This document shows positions 7,401 through 30,170 of a DNA stretch of 64,000 nt, piece by piece (positions within the stretch are counted from its first letter, which is position 1; the number at the start of each line of letters is the position of its first letter). The position numbers and the translations under genes were made by a program. The notes under the pieces are model-generated. The model did not search any database, was not told where the DNA came from, and was given only the letters and a program-made list of their open reading frames with translations. The stretch lies in the sequence record OZ346189.1; one strand, given 5' to 3'. This DNA comes from a phage.

Positions 7401-7879
7401 TTACCGTCCCTTCTGGAGCAATCATTGTGAGAAGGAATGGTAAAGTGGCAGTGTGCGGTAACTGTAATAACGCCAAAGCTTACTCTTCTGTAGCAGGCAA
7501 GGAGATTTCCCGTAACGATGGTAAACCTATCACGTATGGGGTTATGTATGGGGCACAAAAAGATAAAGTTGCAGATATGCTGGACATCTCCCCAGAGTTG
7601 GGACAAAGGGTAATCGATGCACTCTGGGATGCCAACCCAGGTCTTAAGGGGCGCAAAGAGGATCTGGAGAAATTCTGGGAAGCAACAGGTAAGAAGTTTA
7701 TCTACTCTTTTGATGGTCATGCTATCTGGACCCGATCTAAACACTCTTTACTTAATGCATACCAACAAAATGGCGGTGCATCGTTGTGTGACTTAGTTGG
7801 AATACTCATGCACCACCAGATGGTGAAGCGTGGGTGGTACGATGAAGGTGTTCGTCGTATTATTTATTACCATAAATAA
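4481..7879 (+). CDS. DNA polymerase, family A (Pol I/T7 gp5-like), N-terminal and catalytic part; contains an intein; interrupted before C-terminus
   Basis: SD AAGGAGAA; motif A IDGSNLEQL, Pol I-like DAH segment, motif B SRNDGKPITYGVMYG, Q..G.A.D segment QQNGGASLCD and HDE-like WYDE near end; stop TAA 7877-7879. Confidence 0.85.
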   Translation: MSMWNFDFEASGLLDEEDLYYHCGLFKELNKNNFMLFLPINDRSHYSEEEVEKAKQFMLAKQDIYPSCSVRIADFSQLEWWLTGNSDWSPTSLSCHNCFSYDFILMEKLSGIHFDMFRDPKCMGTINNHQVNLFDTLPMSRILWPDRPLPKGCPDSVYNPVTKRMQQVGPHGLMAWGYALGNQKVKIDDWRNLPLWKYVDRVFEDVIIQELLWKELVAESKGVFYGKSDMQNFMYDPAKEKPKGFKKITWKNALRRGMLQHFLMELQARQGVYFDIDGAIALRDRCDAWMKEIADRVEPQLPLKELSMSQRPKFPEKPFNQDGTISNNGWKWLKDKLGYPVDMSALEFKAPPKRAFTSTGDVSKMGIKWCEEMGCKDPDKMADFLRGYIKGTSTPQPLPKELMDQAISDLQQKRMPDCKIPMKISNQDDIKRYLISAGWLPTMWRTKDVTKDSKKKALPDADVDARVYAYMDELLESEYCDLIINFWNKTDAKFQTTVHKFRSFPNSERIKKEVFGKIRRKARALITSPQLKDTFGHLCPNLEKLNGEMAKDIVLWLSLRNRRSVLDPIKEDKVDTGLLNHPRLKIDHKLPAKSSGLTNTSRQKHSICANMPKPSPKVVMGKEMRSLWGVPPGYFEIGIDGSNLEQLIGAWGAFEFDNGLYYDVVSNGDAHCYSGDTQILTEKGWVRFEDLDPGTQVFQYDHNTSSMNLVTPLNYVKRSYCGDMYHFHNSSVDFMVTDQHRMLTVDHRSNKLFEDLAKDLKAGKGSNSGRRFIHAAEFYGNTTLSPAQVNLLIAIHDDGHLHTNKDGSIVCRIQVGKGRKVATLLDTFSALSLSYVEQSGKTTKGGLLARRFQFHVPSWVFEFLDNNKDFTYNLMNLDKESKNLFIASLSNWDGWVSSEGGKVAYYSQAECRKKSVEVVSALATQCGLRNNTVAIHKKGRAVQHRITIGSKQRAGLLTLSKESVEVSGSLVYCVTVPSGAIIVRRNGKVAVCGNCNNAKAYSSVAGKEISRNDGKPITYGVMYGAQKDKVADMLDISPELGQRVIDALWDANPGLKGRKEDLEKFWEATGKKFIYSFDGHAIWTRSKHSLLNAYQQNGGASLCDLVGILMHHQMVKRGWYDEGVRRIIYYHK
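6494..7462 (+). mobile_element. intein with LAGLIDADG-type homing endonuclease domain inside DNA polymerase
   Basis: 323 in-frame codons between Pol motifs A and B; starts CYSGDTQIL (block A), TDQH (block B), LLIAIHDDGH and LFIASLSNWDGW (LAGLIDADG-like), ends ...LVYCVTV...VAVCGN followed by Cys +1. Confidence 0.7.
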
Positions 7880-8377
7880 CATTGTGGCTTCATAGAGTAA
7901 TCTATGTCGAATAACCTCTTTAACTGCGGGAAGCCTAAACCTTATGGCAAGGTAATCCGCAACGAAGCGCTCAAAAGAGCGAACGCTCAGAGGCCATTCC
8001 GAAAGGAAGTAGACCAGCAAGTGCGGTCGAAATGGGAGGATTCCTGTGGTTGCTTATCATAGGAATATGAGATGGTCCGATCCTACGTGAAAACGTATGG
8101 CTATGCACGTAATGGTGCGGGGTAGCTTAACGACCTACCTGAACTATTGGATGAGTACCAACTTCAAGTGCCTGACACACCGAAGTATAAGACTGTGTAC
8201 ACCTTCGACACAATTGAAGAACTGGAAGCATTTAAGGCAGAGCAGGAAGCCAAACTTCATGTGTTCGACGGTCATAAGTACAAAAAGGCACGCAAGGATG
8301 AGGACGGAAACGAAGTGGTTGACAGAGACGGAAACACGGTGTACGATCCTATCCTGAACGATGACGGAAAGCTTGAA
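7847..8377 (+). other. intervening sequence in DNA polymerase gene (candidate group I intron; boundaries approximate)
   Basis: In-frame stops at 7877, 7898 and 8060 separate ...GWYDE from the polymerase C-terminus encoded in the same frame from about 8378; no large ORF inside. Confidence 0.4.
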
Positions 8378-16118: not shown

Positions 16119-16444
16119 CAGAGATCATCATTTCAACTGCAGGGTATGTGTTCCTGACAATCATTGCACTGACCATTTTGGTGGTGGTATATGGAATTGT
16201 TATTCTCCCTATTCTTGAGACAATTAGTTTGTGTCGGTGTTGGAGAAAGGCTTACGGTCCACAGCCGTGGAAGGACTGGCCCCACCTGGTGCACATAGCG
16301 TTCTCTTATGCTTATGATCACGCCAGCAGTGCATGCATAACCGGGTATCACGCCCACAACTGGAGCTGGGAAGGGTTGAGGAAATGGAATGTTACAAAGA
16401 CCATACCTCTGCGCATGTACAAACCTAAAAACAAAGACAGCTGA
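16115..16444 (+). CDS. membrane protein
   Basis: 109 aa; N-terminal transmembrane segment YVFLTIIALTILVVVYGIVILPIL; last gene before the non-coding repeat region. Confidence 0.5.
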   Translation: MTEIIISTAGYVFLTIIALTILVVVYGIVILPILETISLCRCWRKAYGPQPWKDWPHLVHIAFSYAYDHASSACITGYHAHNWSWEGLRKWNVTKTIPLRMYKPKNKDS

Positions 16445-16519
16445 TACTTGAAAATCCCTGGCATATCAAGTGTAAGGAGGATTTCTAAAATGGATTTCCT
16501 CCTTTTGATATTTCACCGG

Positions 16520-17040
16520 GCCAGATATTTTAAAATTCTTAGAAAATCAGAAAATGGATCGAAAACTAAAATGGATTTTTCAAGACAGGCACGATAAGAT
16601 GTGCTGCTCATTCTATCGTTCGCACCGTACTTTAAGTCACTATTCCAGATTTTTCCGCACATACTCTCACCCTTCTACCAGAACTTTCCCAGCTTACCTC
16701 TGACCTTTTATAACAATAAGTCCATTATTATCAGAAAGTTTCGGCACATCTCTTTCGGTACTCGATCTGTTTTTCATTTCAAAGACCTGATTTTCTGAAA
16801 ATTTTTCTCGATAAATTTCTTAGTACTCGATCTGTTTTTCGTTTTCTGAATCGGATTTTCTGGAAATCGTTCCAGCCCTCGACCTGAAATTTTTGGGGAC
16901 GAAATCGATTTTTCGTTTTCAGAAATGGATTTTTAAAATTTCTATATGGGAATATTTTATGGGATACTGTTTTATAGGAAATTGTTACGGAGGGTAATTA
17001 GCATGCTAATTAAATTTATTAAATGCGAGGAGTTCTCATT
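16520..17040. repeat. AT-rich non-coding region with direct repeats and an 18-bp perfect palindrome
   Basis: GTACTCGATCTGTTTTTC at 16758-16775 and 16823-16840, related CTCGACCTGAAATTTTT at about 16876; repeated AAAATGGAT; palindrome TAATTAGCATGCTAATTA 16995-17012. Confidence 0.5.
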
Positions 17041-17049
17041 TAGAATTTT

Positions 17050-17066
17050 GAATGATAATCATTCTC
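17050..17066 (+). promoter_or_regulatory. Fur-box-like site 1
   Basis: GAATGATAATCATTCTC; 15/16 match to the 3' part of the Fur box consensus GATAATGATAATCATTATC. Confidence 0.35.
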
Positions 17067-17080
17067 GTTTGCAGAATAAC

Positions 17081-17104
17081 GGGCAGGCCCGGTGATTGTC
17101 TCCC
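17081..17104 (+). repeat. conserved motif copy 1 (GGGCAGGCCCGGTGATTGTCTCCC)
   Basis: 22/23 identical to the reverse complement of 26869-26891; diverged copy at 17221-17240. Confidence 0.5.
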
Positions 17105-17180
17105 GGCCCCTGTTGCCCCGGCTTGTTATTATAGTATCACACAGGACAAAGAAAGCAAGGATTTTTTGCATAAATTTTTA

Positions 17181-17202
17181 AATGATAATGATAACCGTTC
17201 TC
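17181..17202 (+). promoter_or_regulatory. Fur-box-like site 2
   Basis: AATGATAATGATAACCGTTCTC; core GATAATGATAACCGTTCTC is 16/19 to Fur box consensus. Confidence 0.35.
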
Positions 17203-17721
17203 ATTTTATGCAGCGCCCATCCCCGGTGGTTGTCTCCCCCGTCACCGGTGCCTGCCGTCCTTTCGATAGGTATATTGTGCCACCTGGCGGGGCCGCTGTC
17301 AACACTTCTTCAAAAATTTTTTCTAACATAATGCACCAACCGCTGCAACCTGGCGGGGCCAGCCTGGCAGGACCTGACTGACCAGGTAGGAGAGAGTGAA
17401 AACTTGCAAACCTGGTAGGCCTATGCTACAGGGCAGGTAACAATTGAAGAGGAGGTACAAAAATGAAAAGTAATATAATCCCCTGGAAAATGTAGCGATC
17501 AACGCCGCTGAAGTTATCACCCTGGTTGAAAAGGCTATGGCGGGAGCGTTGGAACATAAAGAAGAGTACGAAAAATGATGGTTAACCTGGCAGGGGCGGC
17601 GGCTGGAGAATTCTTCCCAAAAAATAATTCTAACTAATGGTTGACAGCTCGGAGAGTTCTGTTATTCTTATCCTCGCAAGGTGAACAACACCACACTAAT
17701 TAACAGAGAGGATAAAAAATC

Positions 17722-17919
17722 ATGAACGCCTACGGAATTAAAGTACGTCGCAACACTCACCAGGCCGTCACCGATCAAATGGTTTGCCAGGTGGACGTAA
17801 CCATCAACAACGGGCAAGGCCTTTATAAATTCCGTCGCGGTCAGAGCTATACCCGGCAACAGCTTAATCGTTGCGCCCTGACAAAAGGCCAGATCAACCA
17901 CTGGTTTAATAAAAAATAA
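17722..17919 (+). CDS. hypothetical basic protein
   Basis: 65 aa; AGAGAGGA SD; first gene after the non-coding locus. Confidence 0.5.
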   Translation: MNAYGIKVRRNTHQAVTDQMVCQVDVTINNGQGLYKFRRGQSYTRQQLNRCALTKGQINHWFNKK

Positions 17920-17922
17920 GTA

Positions 17923-17951
17923 TTGACATATAGTCTGACACCAAATACACT
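17923..17951 (+). promoter_or_regulatory. sigma70-like promoter
   Basis: TTGACA 17923-17928, 17-nt spacer, TACACT 17946-17951. Confidence 0.4.
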
Positions 17952-17983
17952 AAAAGCACAAAAGACACTAAGAGGATAAAATC

Positions 17984-18382
17984 ATGAAAACCACTACCTT
18001 TAATTTTGATAATGCGGACTTTTCTTTTTCTGATGTCAAGAACTGCCGCCGGGATCGTGGATTTTACAAGGCTTATAATCTGGTGGGCCTGGACGATGAC
18101 AATAATTTGCACGAAGTAGCTGAGATCCGGTATTATGCCGCCGCCAGCGGGAACACTCAATACTGCGTTTTTTGGATTCACGACAACAAGAACAATAAGT
18201 ACGGTTATACTGGCGGGAAGGCGAGCGGTCACGGTTACGATAAAGCTAATGCAGCACTTGAGAGCGCATTAAATGCTATGGGGATCACTGCCAACGGCTG
18301 GATCTATGAAGAAGAGTTTTTGTCGGCACTTGCTGACCACCTGGGCTATAAAAAGCACATTGTAACATGCGCCCACGAATAA
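17984..18382 (+). CDS. hypothetical protein
   Basis: 132 aa; AAGAGGA SD. Confidence 0.55.
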   Translation: MKTTTFNFDNADFSFSDVKNCRRDRGFYKAYNLVGLDDDNNLHEVAEIRYYAAASGNTQYCVFWIHDNKNNKYGYTGGKASGHGYDKANAALESALNAMGITANGWIYEEEFLSALADHLGYKKHIVTCAHE

Positions 18383-24190: not shown

Positions 24191-24475
24191 ATGGCTATTG
24201 TTACCGCTGGCGATGTAGTAGAAATGGAAGCAAAATACTTAAAAGCGGGTATGCACATCCTACGGAATGATCAAGAGTTATTATTAACGATGGTTGACTA
24301 TAATCACGGCCAGGATTATCCAAGCATCGACTACTTTTTTGAGTATGTTGATGAAGAGTTGAAAGAGGATGAGGCCTATTGCGGTGAGTTCTGCAACTTC
24401 TTTTGTCCTGATGAGGTTGTAAAGGTTATTTATCAACCTGGCGTAGCTTTCCCGCTGCACGCTATCAATAAATAA
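24191..24475 (+). CDS. acidic hypothetical protein
   Basis: 94 aa; TAGGAG SD. Confidence 0.5.
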   Translation: MAIVTAGDVVEMEAKYLKAGMHILRNDQELLLTMVDYNHGQDYPSIDYFFEYVDEELKEDEAYCGEFCNFFCPDEVVKVIYQPGVAFPLHAINK

Positions 24476-24530
24476 ACCTGGCGGGGCCGAAAAGGCCCCC
24501 AATTATGAAAATAAAGAGAGGCAAATCATC

Positions 24531-26781: not shown

Positions 26782-26868
26782 ATAAAAAGTGTTTTGGTAC
26801 TGATTTTGGGGTTGACTTGTTCGGCCCCTTTTGCTATTCTTATTAAACGGGCGGCACTTGGGAACAGG

Positions 26869-26891
26869 GGGAGACAATCACCAGGCCTGCC
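26869..26891 (-). repeat. conserved motif copy 3 (inverted orientation)
   Basis: GGGAGACAATCACCAGGCCTGCC on + strand; reverse complement 22/23 identical to 17081-17104, flanking CCCCTGTT also conserved. Confidence 0.5.
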
Positions 26892-26916
26892 TGTCATATA
26901 AGAACTATAAAAACCG

Positions 26917-26945
26917 TTGACATCTGCCAGGGGGTGGGGTAACAT
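26917..26945 (+). promoter_or_regulatory. sigma70-like promoter
   Basis: TTGACA 26917-26922, 17-nt spacer, TAACAT 26940-26945; second candidate TTGACT 26812-26817 / TATTCT 26835-26840. Confidence 0.4.
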
Positions 26946-27332: not shown

Positions 27333-27596
27333 ATGAAACGTCTTGATCAGCTTAAACTAGTTCAGTACATGGCCTACAAAGTTCTTGAAGTCCAAAAAGG
27401 TAGCAAAAAAGAGGTTTGCGAGAAAGCATATAAGATCTTTACCCGTAAAAAAGATGATTGGATGTTACGCCAGACCAAAAAAGCCGATATCCTGGGATAC
27501 CTGGAAGAAGAGATCCGACTTGAAGAACAAGAAGAGATCCGCCGTAGTGAGGCAGATTATCAGGCAGCTTGGGAAAACTGGATGAGCAACAAATAA
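27333..27596 (+). CDS. hypothetical protein
   Basis: 87 aa; AAGAGGTAAA SD; Lys/Glu-rich. Confidence 0.5.
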   Translation: MKRLDQLKLVQYMAYKVLEVQKGSKKEVCEKAYKIFTRKKDDWMLRQTKKADILGYLEEEIRLEEQEEIRRSEADYQAAWENWMSNK

Positions 27597-27662
27597 TACA
27601 ACAAGTTACATGGTCAGGGGCAATAAAGCCCCTTGATCACATAAAAATTATGCTATCCCTGG

Positions 27663-27691
27663 TTGACAGGGATCGGCAGTTTTGCTATATT
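27663..27691 (+). promoter_or_regulatory. sigma70-like promoter
   Basis: TTGACA 27663-27668, 17-nt spacer, TATATT 27686-27691. Confidence 0.55.
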
Positions 27692-27740
27692 CTTTTTTGA
27701 AGGGAAGTTGTAAGAAAATTAACTAAGAGGTAAAAACACC

Positions 27741-28160
27741 ATGAACATTAAATCTAATAATCCGGCATATAGCTTTGATAACGCTTTTTGTCACGGTCCG
27801 GCGGCGAAAGGATTCGAAATCGATGGTAAACTAATTATTGTCAATGTTGACGGGGAAGAGGTTGCAGTATATCCGGTGGCAGACGTAAAAAGCCGTTTAC
27901 AATGCCGCATGGATGTTACCGCCTATCAGCTTGATCCGGTCCGCATAGTTGCCCTGGTCCTGGAAGAAGAAATTAAAGCCATGCACCATAGCAACAGATT
28001 TATTGGTGACGCGCAGGATAATATGAAAGTATGCCGCCATAAAGTTAATGAAGTGCTTAAAGAGTACGGCTATAAAGATCTTATGATCAAACGTGAGGAA
28101 AAATTCCGCTACCGTAACGACCTGGCAAATCGGATTTTTGAAATATACGAATCATTATAA
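27741..28160 (+). CDS. hypothetical protein
   Basis: 139 aa; AAGAGGTAAAA SD; last gene of + block. Confidence 0.55.
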   Translation: MNIKSNNPAYSFDNAFCHGPAAKGFEIDGKLIIVNVDGEEVAVYPVADVKSRLQCRMDVTAYQLDPVRIVALVLEEEIKAMHHSNRFIGDAQDNMKVCRHKVNEVLKEYGYKDLMIKREEKFRYRNDLANRIFEIYESL

Positions 28161-28178
28161 TTTTTTAACTGAATTATC

Positions 28179-28203
28179 AAGGGGCTTAGGCCCCTTTCTT
28201 TTT
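28179..28203 (+). terminator. rho-independent terminator at end of + block
   Basis: AGGGGC-TTAG-GCCCCT followed by TTCTTTTT. Confidence 0.65.
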
Positions 28204-28589
28204 GTCTGCTCTTCCTCCTACCACAAACGGCCCAGCCTGGCAAGTGGAATAATTGACTAGCCATCAATCCCACACACTGTACAAATATACATGGAAAATA
28301 ACTATTGCATAATTTTTCATTGTGTGGTAGCAGGTCCATTTTTACCCGTTTTCTCTCTCAAAATTGCACGTAATGCCGCTATTGCACAAAATTTAACCTG
28401 ATGCACATCTTCAATATCTTGTCAACAACTAAAAATCTTTATAAGTCATACACTTACACACTCACAAAAGCGTGTTCTACGTGAAAAATCGAGTATAACT
28501 ATAGCCGCCAGATCTCAGAATTTACAAAGGCCATCATTAAAGCTTCAGTAAAATCAGTCATTCCTCACCTCTTGTTAGTCACTATACTA

Positions 28590-28853
28590 TCATTTATCCT
28601 TGTCGTCAAGAACTTTTTTAAATCTTTCAGGGATATCTCCCGTTCTTAGATAGTTCATGACCTCGCAAGGTTCCCACTTGAATTTCTTACAGAGCAGGGC
28701 GGCTGAGATTGTTTCATTGCGAAAAGAAAGGATATTAATATCCCACTCTGAGAACCCCAACTTCCGAAGGGTAGCTACAGAAATCCTCACCGCAACCCAG
28801 CAGCAAAAACATGCAACAAACGCCACTGCTACAACCCACATCAGGATGTTCAT
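28590..28853 (-). CDS. membrane protein
   Basis: 87 aa; N-terminal TM WVVAVAFVACFCCWVAV; last gene of - block. Confidence 0.45.
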   Translation of the reverse strand: MNILMWVVAVAFVACFCCWVAVRISVATLRKLGFSEWDINILSFRNETISAALLCKKFKWEPCEVMNYLRTGDIPERFKKVLDDKDK

Positions 28854-28862
28854 ATAAGCACC

Positions 28863-28946
28863 TTACTGAAATACAAGACACAGTGTTAAGGTTACTGACC
28901 AGCAAATAATTAACAGTGCCGTTGCAACCTTGGCAAGATTTATCAT
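28863..28946 (-). CDS. micro-ORF, hydrophobic (27 aa)
   Basis: ATG overlaps upstream stop (ATGA); MINLAKVATALLIICWSVTLTLCLVFQ; GAGG SD. Confidence 0.25.
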   Translation of the reverse strand: MINLAKVATALLIICWSVTLTLCLVFQ

Positions 28947-29230
28947 AGTGCCTCTAAGATTTCATATCCTTCGGGTCGGAATACAAGCCACTCCGTGGCT
29001 CCGTTTGGTCGATACGCTTTATACAGAACAACCTGGTCTCGGCACATGCACATGGCTACATAGTTTTCATCCACACCTGCAGCCTGCATTGCATCTTCTT
29101 CTCCGGCAACTGCTTTGCTTACAACTTCCTTGGTAGGCAGGTGTGCGATCAGCTCGTCACCATCATTAATTCCAAAATGGCTGAGTTCGCCGTTGGTATC
29201 TTTAATCTTAATCTTAACCAGATCTTTCAT
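28943..29230 (-). CDS. small acidic protein, paralog family member
   Basis: 95 aa; N-terminal KIKIK and C-terminal ...EGYEILEAL shared with family. Confidence 0.5.
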   Translation of the reverse strand: MKDLVKIKIKDTNGELSHFGINDGDELIAHLPTKEVVSKAVAGEEDAMQAAGVDENYVAMCMCRDQVVLYKAYRPNGATEWLVFRPEGYEILEAL

Positions 29231-29559
29231 TAGTCTTCCCCCAGGTTCAAAGGTCCTAAGATTTCATATGCCAGATTAGAAGTTACAAGAGGGTCTTCTG
29301 CGTCTTTAGTATTATACCACCCGTGAATAACCAGAGTCCCACTTTGTTTCATGTCCAACTGGAACTCTTCTGCCGTTTCCTCATCCAGCTCCAAGATTTC
29401 CATAAGGTATTTGATGTTAGGGAGGTATGCAGCTGTTACAGTCCCCTCTACCAGACCTTCAGGCCAACCTACATCTGGATGACAAGTAGGAACCAGATTG
29501 GTCAGCTTAATGGTGTACGCTTTTTCTGCACGAGCCTTCAGTAACGGGTCAATCTTCAT
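29230..29559 (-). CDS. hypothetical protein
   Basis: 109 aa; acidic. Confidence 0.5.
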   Translation of the reverse strand: MKIDPLLKARAEKAYTIKLTNLVPTCHPDVGWPEGLVEGTVTAAYLPNIKYLMEILELDEETAEEFQLDMKQSGTLVIHGWYNTKDAEDPLVTSNLAYEILGPLNLGED

Positions 29560-29909
29560 TATTCGTCCTCCTCTTCGGTACCTGCTTCCAGTAATAAGTT
29601 AAGAATATCTTCTGCACAAGGCTCATAGAACTCTTGGCCTTCATTATCGATGATTTTGTAGTCATCTCCGCGAATAATCAGAGGATCACTCTCAAAATTA
29701 TCGAGACCTTTAACAACGACAACACGATCGATTGCCATCATTGTAAGAACTTTATCGACATCTTCCTCTGCTACACCATACTGCAGCAGAATGTCTTTGG
29801 TAGGAGGAACAGCATCCACCACAACACCGTTACCAAAACCTTCCGGTAAGTTAGCTAAAATATCTTCCGGAACCACACTAACATCAAAACCAGTAATTTC
29901 TACTTTCAT
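29559..29909 (-). CDS. small acidic protein
   Basis: 116 aa; MKVEITG... start; poly-Glu C-terminus. Confidence 0.5.
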   Translation of the reverse strand: MKVEITGFDVSVVPEDILANLPEGFGNGVVVDAVPPTKDILLQYGVAEEDVDKVLTMMAIDRVVVVKGLDNFESDPLIIRGDDYKIIDNEGQEFYEPCAEDILNLLLEAGTEEEDE

Positions 29910-30170
29910 TTACAGCACCTCTTCGTCAACTACTTCATAAAAATGGCCTGGGATTGCAATAGCGTTCTCACCTTCACCTACAAACACAGTTCCGTCAAGA
30001 ATCAACATCATAAGAGTTTCTGGAATATCCTCTTCCTGAACGTTGCCAAAACCTTTAATCAGCTCGTAGGTTGGAAGATTTACCTCTAAGATGTCACCAT
30101 CTTTAGAGCGGAAATCAACACCATCCTGAATCTCTGCCATTTCAAGGTTTTTCAGTTTAATCTTCATCAA
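29910..30170 (-). CDS. small acidic protein, paralog family member
   Basis: 86 aa; MMKIKLKNLE...HFYEVVDEEVL. Confidence 0.5.
   Translation of the reverse strand: MMKIKLKNLEMAEIQDGVDFRSKDGDILEVNLPTYELIKGFGNVQEEDIPETLMMLILDGTVFVGEGENAIAIPGHFYEVVDEEVL

Follow-up and report, generated by a model that had tools for sequence, protein, structure and literature searches.

What use might a strictly lytic phage have for sequences that resemble binding sites of the host iron regulator Fur, kept in DNA that does not code for protein? Phages with a strictly lytic life cycle are mostly assumed to take no notice of the transcription factors of their host. The question is raised by a locus at about 17040-17660 of the window, that is, of the whole stretch of 64,000 nucleotides from sequence record OZ346189.1 that was analysed; its sequence assigns the window to a strictly lytic, rV5-like Escherichia coli phage (Vequintavirus). 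In an initial annotation, the locus had been described as iron-responsive or repressor-controlled, read from the + strand and possibly encoding small RNAs. The description of a non-coding locus carrying what are by sequence Fur boxes stood up to analysis; discrete structured small RNAs were not supported, and the better-conserved promoter candidates were found on the other strand. A regulatory role is the most economical reading of the locus, and the form of it that we favour, tentatively and with somewhat less than even confidence, is a Fur-gated switch of convergent promoters in a conserved non-coding control region. The coordinates of the features discussed below are collected in Table 1.

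Table 1. Features of the locus and of related sites. Positions are those of the window, except for the box arrays of three relatives in the last lines.
Feature	Position	Strand	Remarks
Three 47-nt direct repeats, iteron-like, rich in T-tracts	16748-16933		Spaced 65 and 74 bp; left part of the core
Perfect A+T-rich palindrome TAATTAGCATGCTAATTA	16995-17012		Nearly invariant in Vequintavirus
Degenerate third box AATGCGAGGAGTTCTCATT	17022-17040		Exactly 29 bp upstream of box 1
P_R1, rightward promoter candidate, TTGAAT-18-CAGAAT	17048-17077	+	8/12; -35 and spacer covered by box 1
Fur box 1, AATGATAATCATTCTCGTT	17051-17069		1 mismatch to palindrome AATGAnAATnATTnTCATT
109-codon open reading frame (rV5 ORF198)	17052-17381	+	Pro/Gly-rich; not a gene
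M1 core with motif copy 1, GGTGATTGTCTCCC (17091-17104)	17069-17106		E = 8e-12; cross-genus alignment
P_L1, leftward promoter candidate facing P_R1, TTGCTT-16-TACTAT	17131-17158	-	7/12 in the window
Fur box 2	17181-17205		Two overlapping matches inside AATGATAATGATAACCGTTCTCATT
M2 core with motif copy 2, GGTGGTTGTCTCCC (17225-17238)	17207-17241		E = 7e-5; Vequintavirus only
P_L2, leftward promoter candidate, TTGACA-17-CACAAT with TG	17274-17302	-	10/12; spacer holds ACCTGGCGGGGCC (17282-17294)
Poorly conserved, CCTGG-rich spacer	17301-17455		73% mean identity; carries indels
Second exact copy of ACCTGGCGGGGCC	17348-17360	+	In the CCTGG-rich spacer
Frameshifted remnant of a 58-codon gene (phrog_21957)	17463-17640	+	Its start is the former "10-codon ORF"
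C3, inverted third copy of the module	26812-26945	+	E = 4e-10; order P1, motif (-) 26869-26882, P2, gene 27000
P1, gene-27000 promoter candidate, TTGACT-17-TATTCT	26812-26840	+	
P2, gene-27000 promoter candidate, TTGACA-17-TAACAT	26917-26945	+	
Phased box array, nepoznato	1132/1161/1190/1219		
Phased box array, CR3	8121/8150/8179		
Phased box array, POP18	962/991/1020		

Conservation of the non-coding core

When positions 16400-18000 were compared with phage records, 122 matches of 80-99% identity were obtained, nearly all of them from Vequintavirus (rV5-like E. coli myoviruses), and phage inoa was the nearest relative across 17030-17420 (99.7%). All genes around the locus are on the + strand, and no function could be assigned to the flanking proteins in Pfam or PHROGs. 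Identities were then expressed as mean pairwise values among 8 Vequintavirus genomes or, for the flanking genes, as identity to the window. The part with the direct repeats and A+T-rich DNA (16771-17030) reached 94% and the part with the boxes, motifs and promoter candidates (17031-17300) 97%, whereas the spacers on either side (16578-16770 and 17301-17455) showed only 73-74%. The segment 16771-17300 is non-coding and conserved like the flanking genes (86-99%), with the boxes and the motif forming its core. The difference between 94-97% in the core and about 73% in the spacers indicates that the core is under selection as DNA or RNA, and these alignments speak for purifying selection on a locus without coding function.

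The conservation extends beyond the genus. In a sensitive search with 17030-17420, 273 phage records were matched. Outside Vequintavirus the match was limited to the first ~60-135 nt, corresponding to box 1 and the motif, with 72-89% identity, and it lay nearly always in unannotated DNA of Phapecoctavirus, Certrevirus, Seunavirus, Mydovirus, Avunavirus, Erwinia and Pectobacterium phages and the Aeromonas Plateaulakevirus. The region of boxes and motif is shared by two phage subfamilies and by phages of Aeromonas. The occurrence of the motif copies in related genomes, on which the initial annotation had made its reading depend, was thus observed, with boxes present in the relatives and the motif in most of them. 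About 20 GenBank records titled "Campylobacter phage" (MG0656xx) are 92-99% identical to E. coli Vequintavirus across the locus and are probably mislabelled or contaminant assemblies. In rV5, the counterpart of the locus lies at ~116.2-117.4 kb, where small hypothetical open reading frames (ORFs) 196-199 are annotated; the rV5 genome paper contains no discussion of it, and the "non-coding" region described there is elsewhere, at 104.0-106.6 kb (PMC3606486).

Fur-type boxes

Both Fur-box-like sites of the initial annotation exist. The second, at 17184-17202, matches the E. coli Fur consensus GATAATGATAATCATTATC at 16/19 positions and is the sole match with at most 3 mismatches in the 64 kb (0.04 expected). 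The first, TTGAATGATAATCATTCTC at 17048-17066, has its central 13 bases exact and matches at 15/19 positions; the figure of 15/16 given earlier came from a truncated consensus. When the palindrome AATGAnAATnATTnTCATT was used as the query, the sites at 17051 and 17187 had 1 and 2 mismatches, respectively, and every other site in the window at least 3. At up to 3 mismatches, 6 matches were found versus 0.91 expected, a number reached in 0 of 100 shuffles. The spacing between the two boxes is 136 bp, and the rV5 allele of box 2, AATGATAATCGTTCTCATT, has 1 mismatch. The degenerate third box also has an equivalent in rV5, with 3 mismatches and again 29 bp upstream of box 1, which is the period seen in the arrays of other genera.

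Box 1 was invariant across the 8 Vequintavirus genomes and was present in all 21 of the loci compared that carry the motif module M1 described below, from at least 7 genera. No other element is as well conserved across Vequinta-, Phapecocta-, Certre-, Seuna-, Mydo- and Avunavirus and the Aeromonas Plateaulakevirus. Relatives have perfect matches to the palindrome (0 mismatches) of the form AATGA(G/T)AATCATTCTCATT, and often arrays of 2-4 boxes with an exact 29-bp period; such arrays were found in Phapecocta-, Certre-, Seuna- and Mydovirus and in POP18 (L123, L124, L137, L153 and others). Boxes have been retained by phages that infect Escherichia, Klebsiella, Salmonella, Cronobacter, Pectobacterium, Erwinia and Aeromonas, and the adjoining small genes differ among them.

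The exact 19-mer of the box occurs in at least 120 bacterial species. In a small random sample of genes starting within 100 bp of it, 2 of 9 have functions specific to iron, one coding for an FTR1 iron permease and the other for a FUR-family regulator. Another 3 of the 9, coding for a multicopper oxidase, an extracellular solute-binding protein and an ABC ATPase, are of kinds often tied to iron uptake. The sample fits the known use of the palindrome at iron genes. A search for Fur homologues gave matches in 31 phage records, none of them from Vequintavirinae, and host Fur is therefore the only known protein reading this sequence. By sequence, both sites are Fur boxes, and binding of Fur to them is predicted. 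For this phage group, no publication was found that deals with Fur boxes, small RNAs, an origin or the starts of transcription; the nearest published case is the Fur box upstream of the sit operon in temperate lambdoid phages (PMC6969025).

A module repeated three times

The 14-nt motif GGTGRTTGTCTCCC has exactly three perfect copies in the window, at 17091 (+), 17225 (+) and 26869 (-). A profile of the surrounding ~40-nt core was built from 24 aligned copies, namely M1 from 14 genomes, C3 from 8, M2 of the window and an orphan copy, L092. In the window it found only M1, C3 and M2, and the next match had an E value of 1.1. The shared core consists of an A/T-rich -10-like hexamer (CAGAAT, CTGAAT, TTATAT or TATATA), RRC, GGGCAGG (or GGGCACC), 2-3 nt and CGGTG(A/T/G)TTGTCTCC, and in all copies the hexamer stands at a fixed distance from the motif. 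The recurrence of the motif and its inverted copy, 22/23 identical to M1, agreed with what had been annotated, but the motif begins 22-24 nt after each box and not ~15 nt, and the inverted copy, said to lie just upstream of the gene-27000 promoters, is actually placed between the two candidates. It is also complementary at 22/23 positions to the rightward RNA of M1.

The position of M2 is taken in other genera by a different element of ~100 nt. Conservation of C3 extends to Phapecoctavirus, Justusliebigvirus and Certrevirus. In the genome analysed here C3 lacks a Fur box; in CR3 and POP18 a Fur-type box lies downstream of it, and C3 is therefore a full inverted paralogue of M1 there. M1 and C3 point away from each other at a distance of 9.8 kb, and the same spacing and relative orientation are seen in Phapecoctavirus anhysbys. 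A transposon or invertible segment bounded by M1 and C3 was considered and rejected, as the 9.8-kb arrangement is also present in Phapecoctavirus and only ~23 bp are common to both ends. A genome end or packaging site was likewise discarded: one record begins 70 nt before the box, but its 80-nt terminal overlap looks like an assembly artefact.

The motif matched none of the host-factor consensus sequences tried, and nothing similar was found in E. coli genomes by a search that is blind to matches of ~16 nt or shorter. A motif scan of IMG/VR returned mostly a chance match inside a lambdoid prophage gene and only 5 relevant loci. One of these databank sequences, L092 (1.2 kb), carries the orphan module with a degenerate box between two genes of a phage, oriented like C3 with a promoter, the motif as GGGGGAGACAATCACC and a second promoter. 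Two either/or triplets interrupt the otherwise invariant stretch around the first motif copy, at 17086-17088 (AGG or CCC) and 17112-17114 (TGT or TAC). All four combinations of these alleles occur within the genus, and both 5' alleles are also found in Certre- and Seunavirus; the polymorphisms could come from gene conversion between paralogous copies.

Candidate promoters on both strands

Promoter-like hexamers of the sigma-70 type are found on both sides of the motif. The rightward candidate P_R1 is found with 8/12 at the same offset in most genera. The leftward candidate P_L1 also keeps a fixed offset and reaches 9-11/12 in Certre-, Seuna- and Mydovirus, a Hena1-like contig, PhAER-3 and L044, and 8/12 with TG in W70; its hexamers are conserved while the spacer sequences vary. 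Equivalents of P_L2 score 10-12/12 in 14 of 16 genomes outside Vequintavirus, the exceptions being L044 and 2L372X. In most genera the hexamers stand face to face at fixed offsets, with the -10 elements ending at +21 and at +72 to +76 of the anchor.

From these positions, the predicted starts of P_R1 (~17084) and P_L1 (~17124) would face each other ~38 bp apart with the motif in the overlap, and across the facing promoter pairs the distance between the putative starts would be ~38-50 bp. Further starts are predicted at ~17267 (-) and, less strongly, at ~17216 (+). C3 appears to repeat the geometry, with a P1 start expected at ~26848, an opposing start from the -10-like TTATAT at ~26889 and the motif between them. 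The motif is thus the centre of a module bracketed by convergent sigma-70 promoter candidates. Since the best-conserved of these candidates are on the - strand, the motif would lie in the overlap of convergent transcripts. The + strand had been assumed initially; the stronger and better-conserved promoter candidates point leftward.

Reading frames of the locus

The 109-codon ORF had been judged non-coding, and our data agree, as its frame is not kept across relatives and its start lies inside a Fur box. It is annotated as a hypothetical protein in rV5 (ORF198), WalterGehring, slur16 and GEC_vB_MG. However, the ATG is part of Fur box 1 and has no ribosome-binding site, and of the 16 relatives outside Vequintavirus with this ATG, 11 have a stop after 6-38 codons (Phapecocta-, Seuna-, Mydo- and Avunavirus, the Aeromonas phages and L044). 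A long frame is restricted to G+C-rich DNA. Among Vequintavirus genomes, differences in the length of a poly-A tract shift the 3' end of the frame, and indels that are not multiples of three occur there. Since the frame closes so early in most of these relatives, ORF198 is not regarded as a gene, and we see next to no chance that it encodes a protein.

The 10-codon ORF with a GAGGAGG ribosome-binding site, also singled out in the initial annotation, is real, but it is not free-standing: it is the 5' remnant of a 58-codon gene. WalterGehring has an intact protein of 58 residues at this place (phrog_21957, E = 5e-36), and in 72 of 100 Vequintavirus records at least 80% of the gene was covered in one unbroken match. 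In the window the gene is broken by the loss of one C from a C-run and one A from an A-run, and phage inoa shows the same shortened match (residues 7-45). The strong ribosome-binding site and the ATG are kept in all aligned genomes. In most Vequintavirus genomes the gene is intact; the stretch in the window is its decayed form and not a regulatory RNA.

RNA structure

Of the small RNAs suggested at first, no discrete structured form found backing. For predicted RNAs of the three module copies of the window, folding in either strand did not surpass that of dinucleotide shuffles (z between +0.4 and -0.9), and copies from other genomes gave z values from -3.3 to +1.9 with no consistent strand preference. 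Rfam gave no match at gathering score, and relaxing the limit to E = 10 for the locus and to E = 1 for 7 relatives added none; no terminator-like site was present on either strand in 17040-17460. Comparison with related phages, as had been proposed for structure and covariance, revealed no compensatory change in the supposed middle helix of M1, in which the two variable triplets would face each other in the obvious hairpin; since all four combinations of AGG/CCC and TGT/TAC occur, this helix is not preserved. Around the motif, a short stem is found repeatedly (CCGG/CCGG, GCG/CGC or CACCGG/CCGGTG), with different partners in M1, M2 and C3. A discrete structured small RNA is not supported by these results, which leave room for short unstructured antisense transcripts.

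A proposed Fur-gated switch and its alternatives

The switch that we favour builds on the sequences, their statistics and conservation and the positions of the promoter hexamers, and from these it predicts Fur binding, all of the starts, promoter interference and any output. In iron-replete cells, Fur-Fe on the boxes would shut the rightward promoter. It may also hinder leftward elongation, as RNA polymerase starting at P_L1 would reach the boxes after ~55-75 nt. Under iron shortage, Fur would leave the boxes, rightward transcription would collide with leftward transcription, and the rightward RNA would be antisense to the leftward one. Host iron status might in this manner decide how two short transcripts that run towards each other are balanced, and thereby set the amount of leftward transcription into the A+T-rich repeat array. 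C3, which occupies the leader of the gene-27000 operon between its two promoter candidates, could join the same control by virtue of its facing geometry and its 22/23 complementarity.

Several points weigh against this switch. P_R1 is a weak match to the consensus, and Phapecoctavirus, Mydovirus, W70 and the Aeromonas phages lack it; P_L1 reaches only 7/12 in Vequintavirus itself. An exact 29-bp phasing is not known to us from Fur sites at bacterial promoters and might be the mark of another binder, encoded by the phage. Within genomes, the motif variants of M1 and C3 show no co-variation (A/A in the window, T/G in L287 and L057, A/T in CR3 and POP18), and models that need trans pairing between the copies are weakened by this. 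No transcript data from any member of the phage group were found in the literature searched.

The alternatives, namely a replication origin, small RNAs, a Fur decoy and phage operators, overlap with the favoured switch rather than excluding it. The locus might be a transcription-activated origin in which tandem P_L2 and P_L1 fire into the A+T-rich zone and the iteron-like array, with Fur as an architectural or licensing factor and C3 as a second, opposite start. We consider this unlikely. It would account for the direct repeats and the low G+C content (32-36% at the repeat array), for a core conserved as highly as coding sequence, for conserved promoter candidates aimed at the array, and for the divergence of M1 and C3 at 9.8 kb both in the window and in Phapecoctavirus anhysbys. 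It would also agree with the finding that each of the other genera has its own lineage-specific array at the same position (GGGTTCTCGATCG units in POP18 and BIS47, GAGAACTTGAGAGGTTTTTC units in W70), as expected from co-evolution with a binding protein. However, no DnaA or IHF consensus sites were found, no conserved initiator gene lies beside the locus (the upstream genes differ by lineage and have no assigned function), the leftward RNA has no consistent G excess, and there is no local switch of GC skew; in rV5, all skew changes were tied by the authors to the direction of transcription (PMC3606486). A G-rich, R-loop-prone leader was dropped from consideration on account of its inconsistent strand bias. 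That Fur acts specifically as the licensing factor, with phased boxes between convergent promoters gating the transcription that primes or activates replication at the array and C3 as the opposite partner, seems quite improbable to us; if it were so, phage DNA synthesis would be coupled to the iron supply needed by ribonucleotide reduction. The locus is the best candidate so far for an unmapped control or origin region in this phage group.

Fur-repressed, trans-acting small RNAs, made from P_R1 and its counterpart at M2 and using their conserved 5' end (GGCAGGnCCGGUGAUUGUCUCC) as a seed in the manner of RyhB, are also unlikely. The Fur box does overlap a promoter-like site, and the most conserved stretch begins at the putative start with a 3' part that varies by genus, which is the pattern of a 5' seed; in Avunavirus a hairpin followed by a U-rich tail lies ~95 nt downstream, and the RNA would be complementary to the C3 leader at 22/23 positions. 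On the other side, the window copies have no terminator, folding z values are near 0, Rfam matches and compensatory changes in the middle helix are absent, a conserved promoter candidate faces P_R1 only ~38 bp away, nothing similar was seen in E. coli genomes with a search unable to detect short seeds, and M1 and C3 do not co-vary. We give little credence to the idea that the boxes are a decoy which soaks up host Fur as the phage genome multiplies and derepresses host iron uptake and other Fur-controlled genes, to the advantage of the phage. Multicopy Fur boxes derepress the Fur regulon, which is the principle of the Fur titration assay, and the boxes are near consensus and often number 2-4 per genome, but the window has only two good ones, and a decoy does not need the fixed position relative to promoters and motif that is conserved here. 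Equally doubtful is the proposal that boxes and motif are operators for other phage proteins and that the likeness to Fur boxes is coincidental. The exact 29-bp phasing, the small uncharacterised genes adjoining the locus in relatives and the lack of a match between the motif and any host-factor consensus tried speak for it; the perfect match of many relatives to a palindrome used beside iron genes across bacteria, and the retention of the box across phages of seven host genera while the neighbouring small genes differ, speak against it.

Relation to known systems

Fur boxes and convergent promoter switches are, individually, known kinds of element. As in Fur-repressed bacterial promoters (aerobactin iucA, fepA-entD, fur), the -35 and spacer of a promoter of the sigma-70 type, here a candidate, are covered by a 19-bp A/T-rich Fur palindrome, with several adjacent sites. 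Unlike them, the locus is in a strictly lytic phage with no iron gene downstream, its boxes are phased at 29 bp instead of forming overlapping hexamers, and the candidate promoter faces a second one ~38 bp away. Small RNAs of the RyhB/PrrF type share with it a Fur box at the promoter, here a candidate, and a conserved C/U-rich 5' stretch as a possible seed, but the phage locus has no sequence or Rfam similarity to them, no terminator and no stable fold, and its transcript would overlap a convergent one. The switches of the temperate coliphages P2 (Pe/Pc) and 186 (pR/pL) have convergent promoters as well, with starts tens of bp apart and repressor sites that choose the winner; in the phage locus, however, the promoters are candidates, lysogeny genes are lacking, the proposed repressor is a host protein and there are three copies per genome. 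The locus resembles the transcription-primed origins of T7 (primary origin), T4 (ori(uvsY) and ori(34)) and ColE1 in that its promoter candidates would fire into an A+T-rich zone with repeat arrays adjoining, and differs from them in having neither an initiator gene nor DnaA or IHF sites. Lambdoid phages from infant-gut E. coli also have a Fur box in their genome, at the sitABCD operon, that ties phage DNA to the host Fur regulon (PMC6969025), but that operon is temperate-phage cargo with an obvious iron function, whereas the boxes described here are in core non-coding DNA of virulent phages.

In the literature, we found no description of deep conservation of Fur boxes in virulent phages, of arrays phased at 29 bp or of a module in three copies. 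Near-perfect Fur boxes are kept in a fixed arrangement in two phage subfamilies with hosts from Escherichia to Aeromonas. If Fur binding holds, it would be surprising to phage biologists that a strictly lytic phage may read the iron status of its host. The conserved arrangement would mean that a large group of phages, many of them under study as candidates for therapy or biocontrol, senses or manipulates host iron status; their places of use would be the gut and infected tissue, in which iron is in short supply.

Other features of the region

The repeats of the ACCTGGCGGGGCC type noted near 17283, 17349 and 24477 were confirmed as exact copies of this 13-mer at 17282, 17348 and 24476; with up to 2 mismatches, 5 matches were counted against 0.6 expected. 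The third copy (24476-24500, +) forms the 5' arm of a GGGGCC-GAAAA-GGCCCC hairpin directly after the stop of gene 24191-24475, and no T-run follows it.

In genera other than Vequintavirus, an invariant direct repeat, CTTTAC-N5-CTTTAC, takes the place of M2 between M1 and P_L2. Its other strand, GTAAA-N5-GTAAA, may resemble a CpxR-type box. The ~100-nt element between M1 and P_L2 in these genera is G+C-rich (L124, ~1330-1480; also L123, L125, L126, L128, L153, L154 and L156). It shows a few compensatory changes (CCCC/GGGG to CCAA/TTGG in Ro1) and has no Rfam match, and RNAalifold gave a covariation term near 0 for both strands of the relatives' element, which is absent from the window. Beyond it, a small gene without assigned function is found on the minus strand.

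The part of the window at ~27500-30100 corresponds to the stretch of rV5 (104013-106618) that was called ORF-free in the rV5 paper (PMC3606486). Here it holds small ORFs on both strands, which converge at ~28.2-28.6 kb, and neither a repeat array nor Fur boxes. At 7864-8099 (+), the window carries a full-length group I catalytic intron (Rfam RF00028), with a score of 64.7 bits versus a gathering score of 50.

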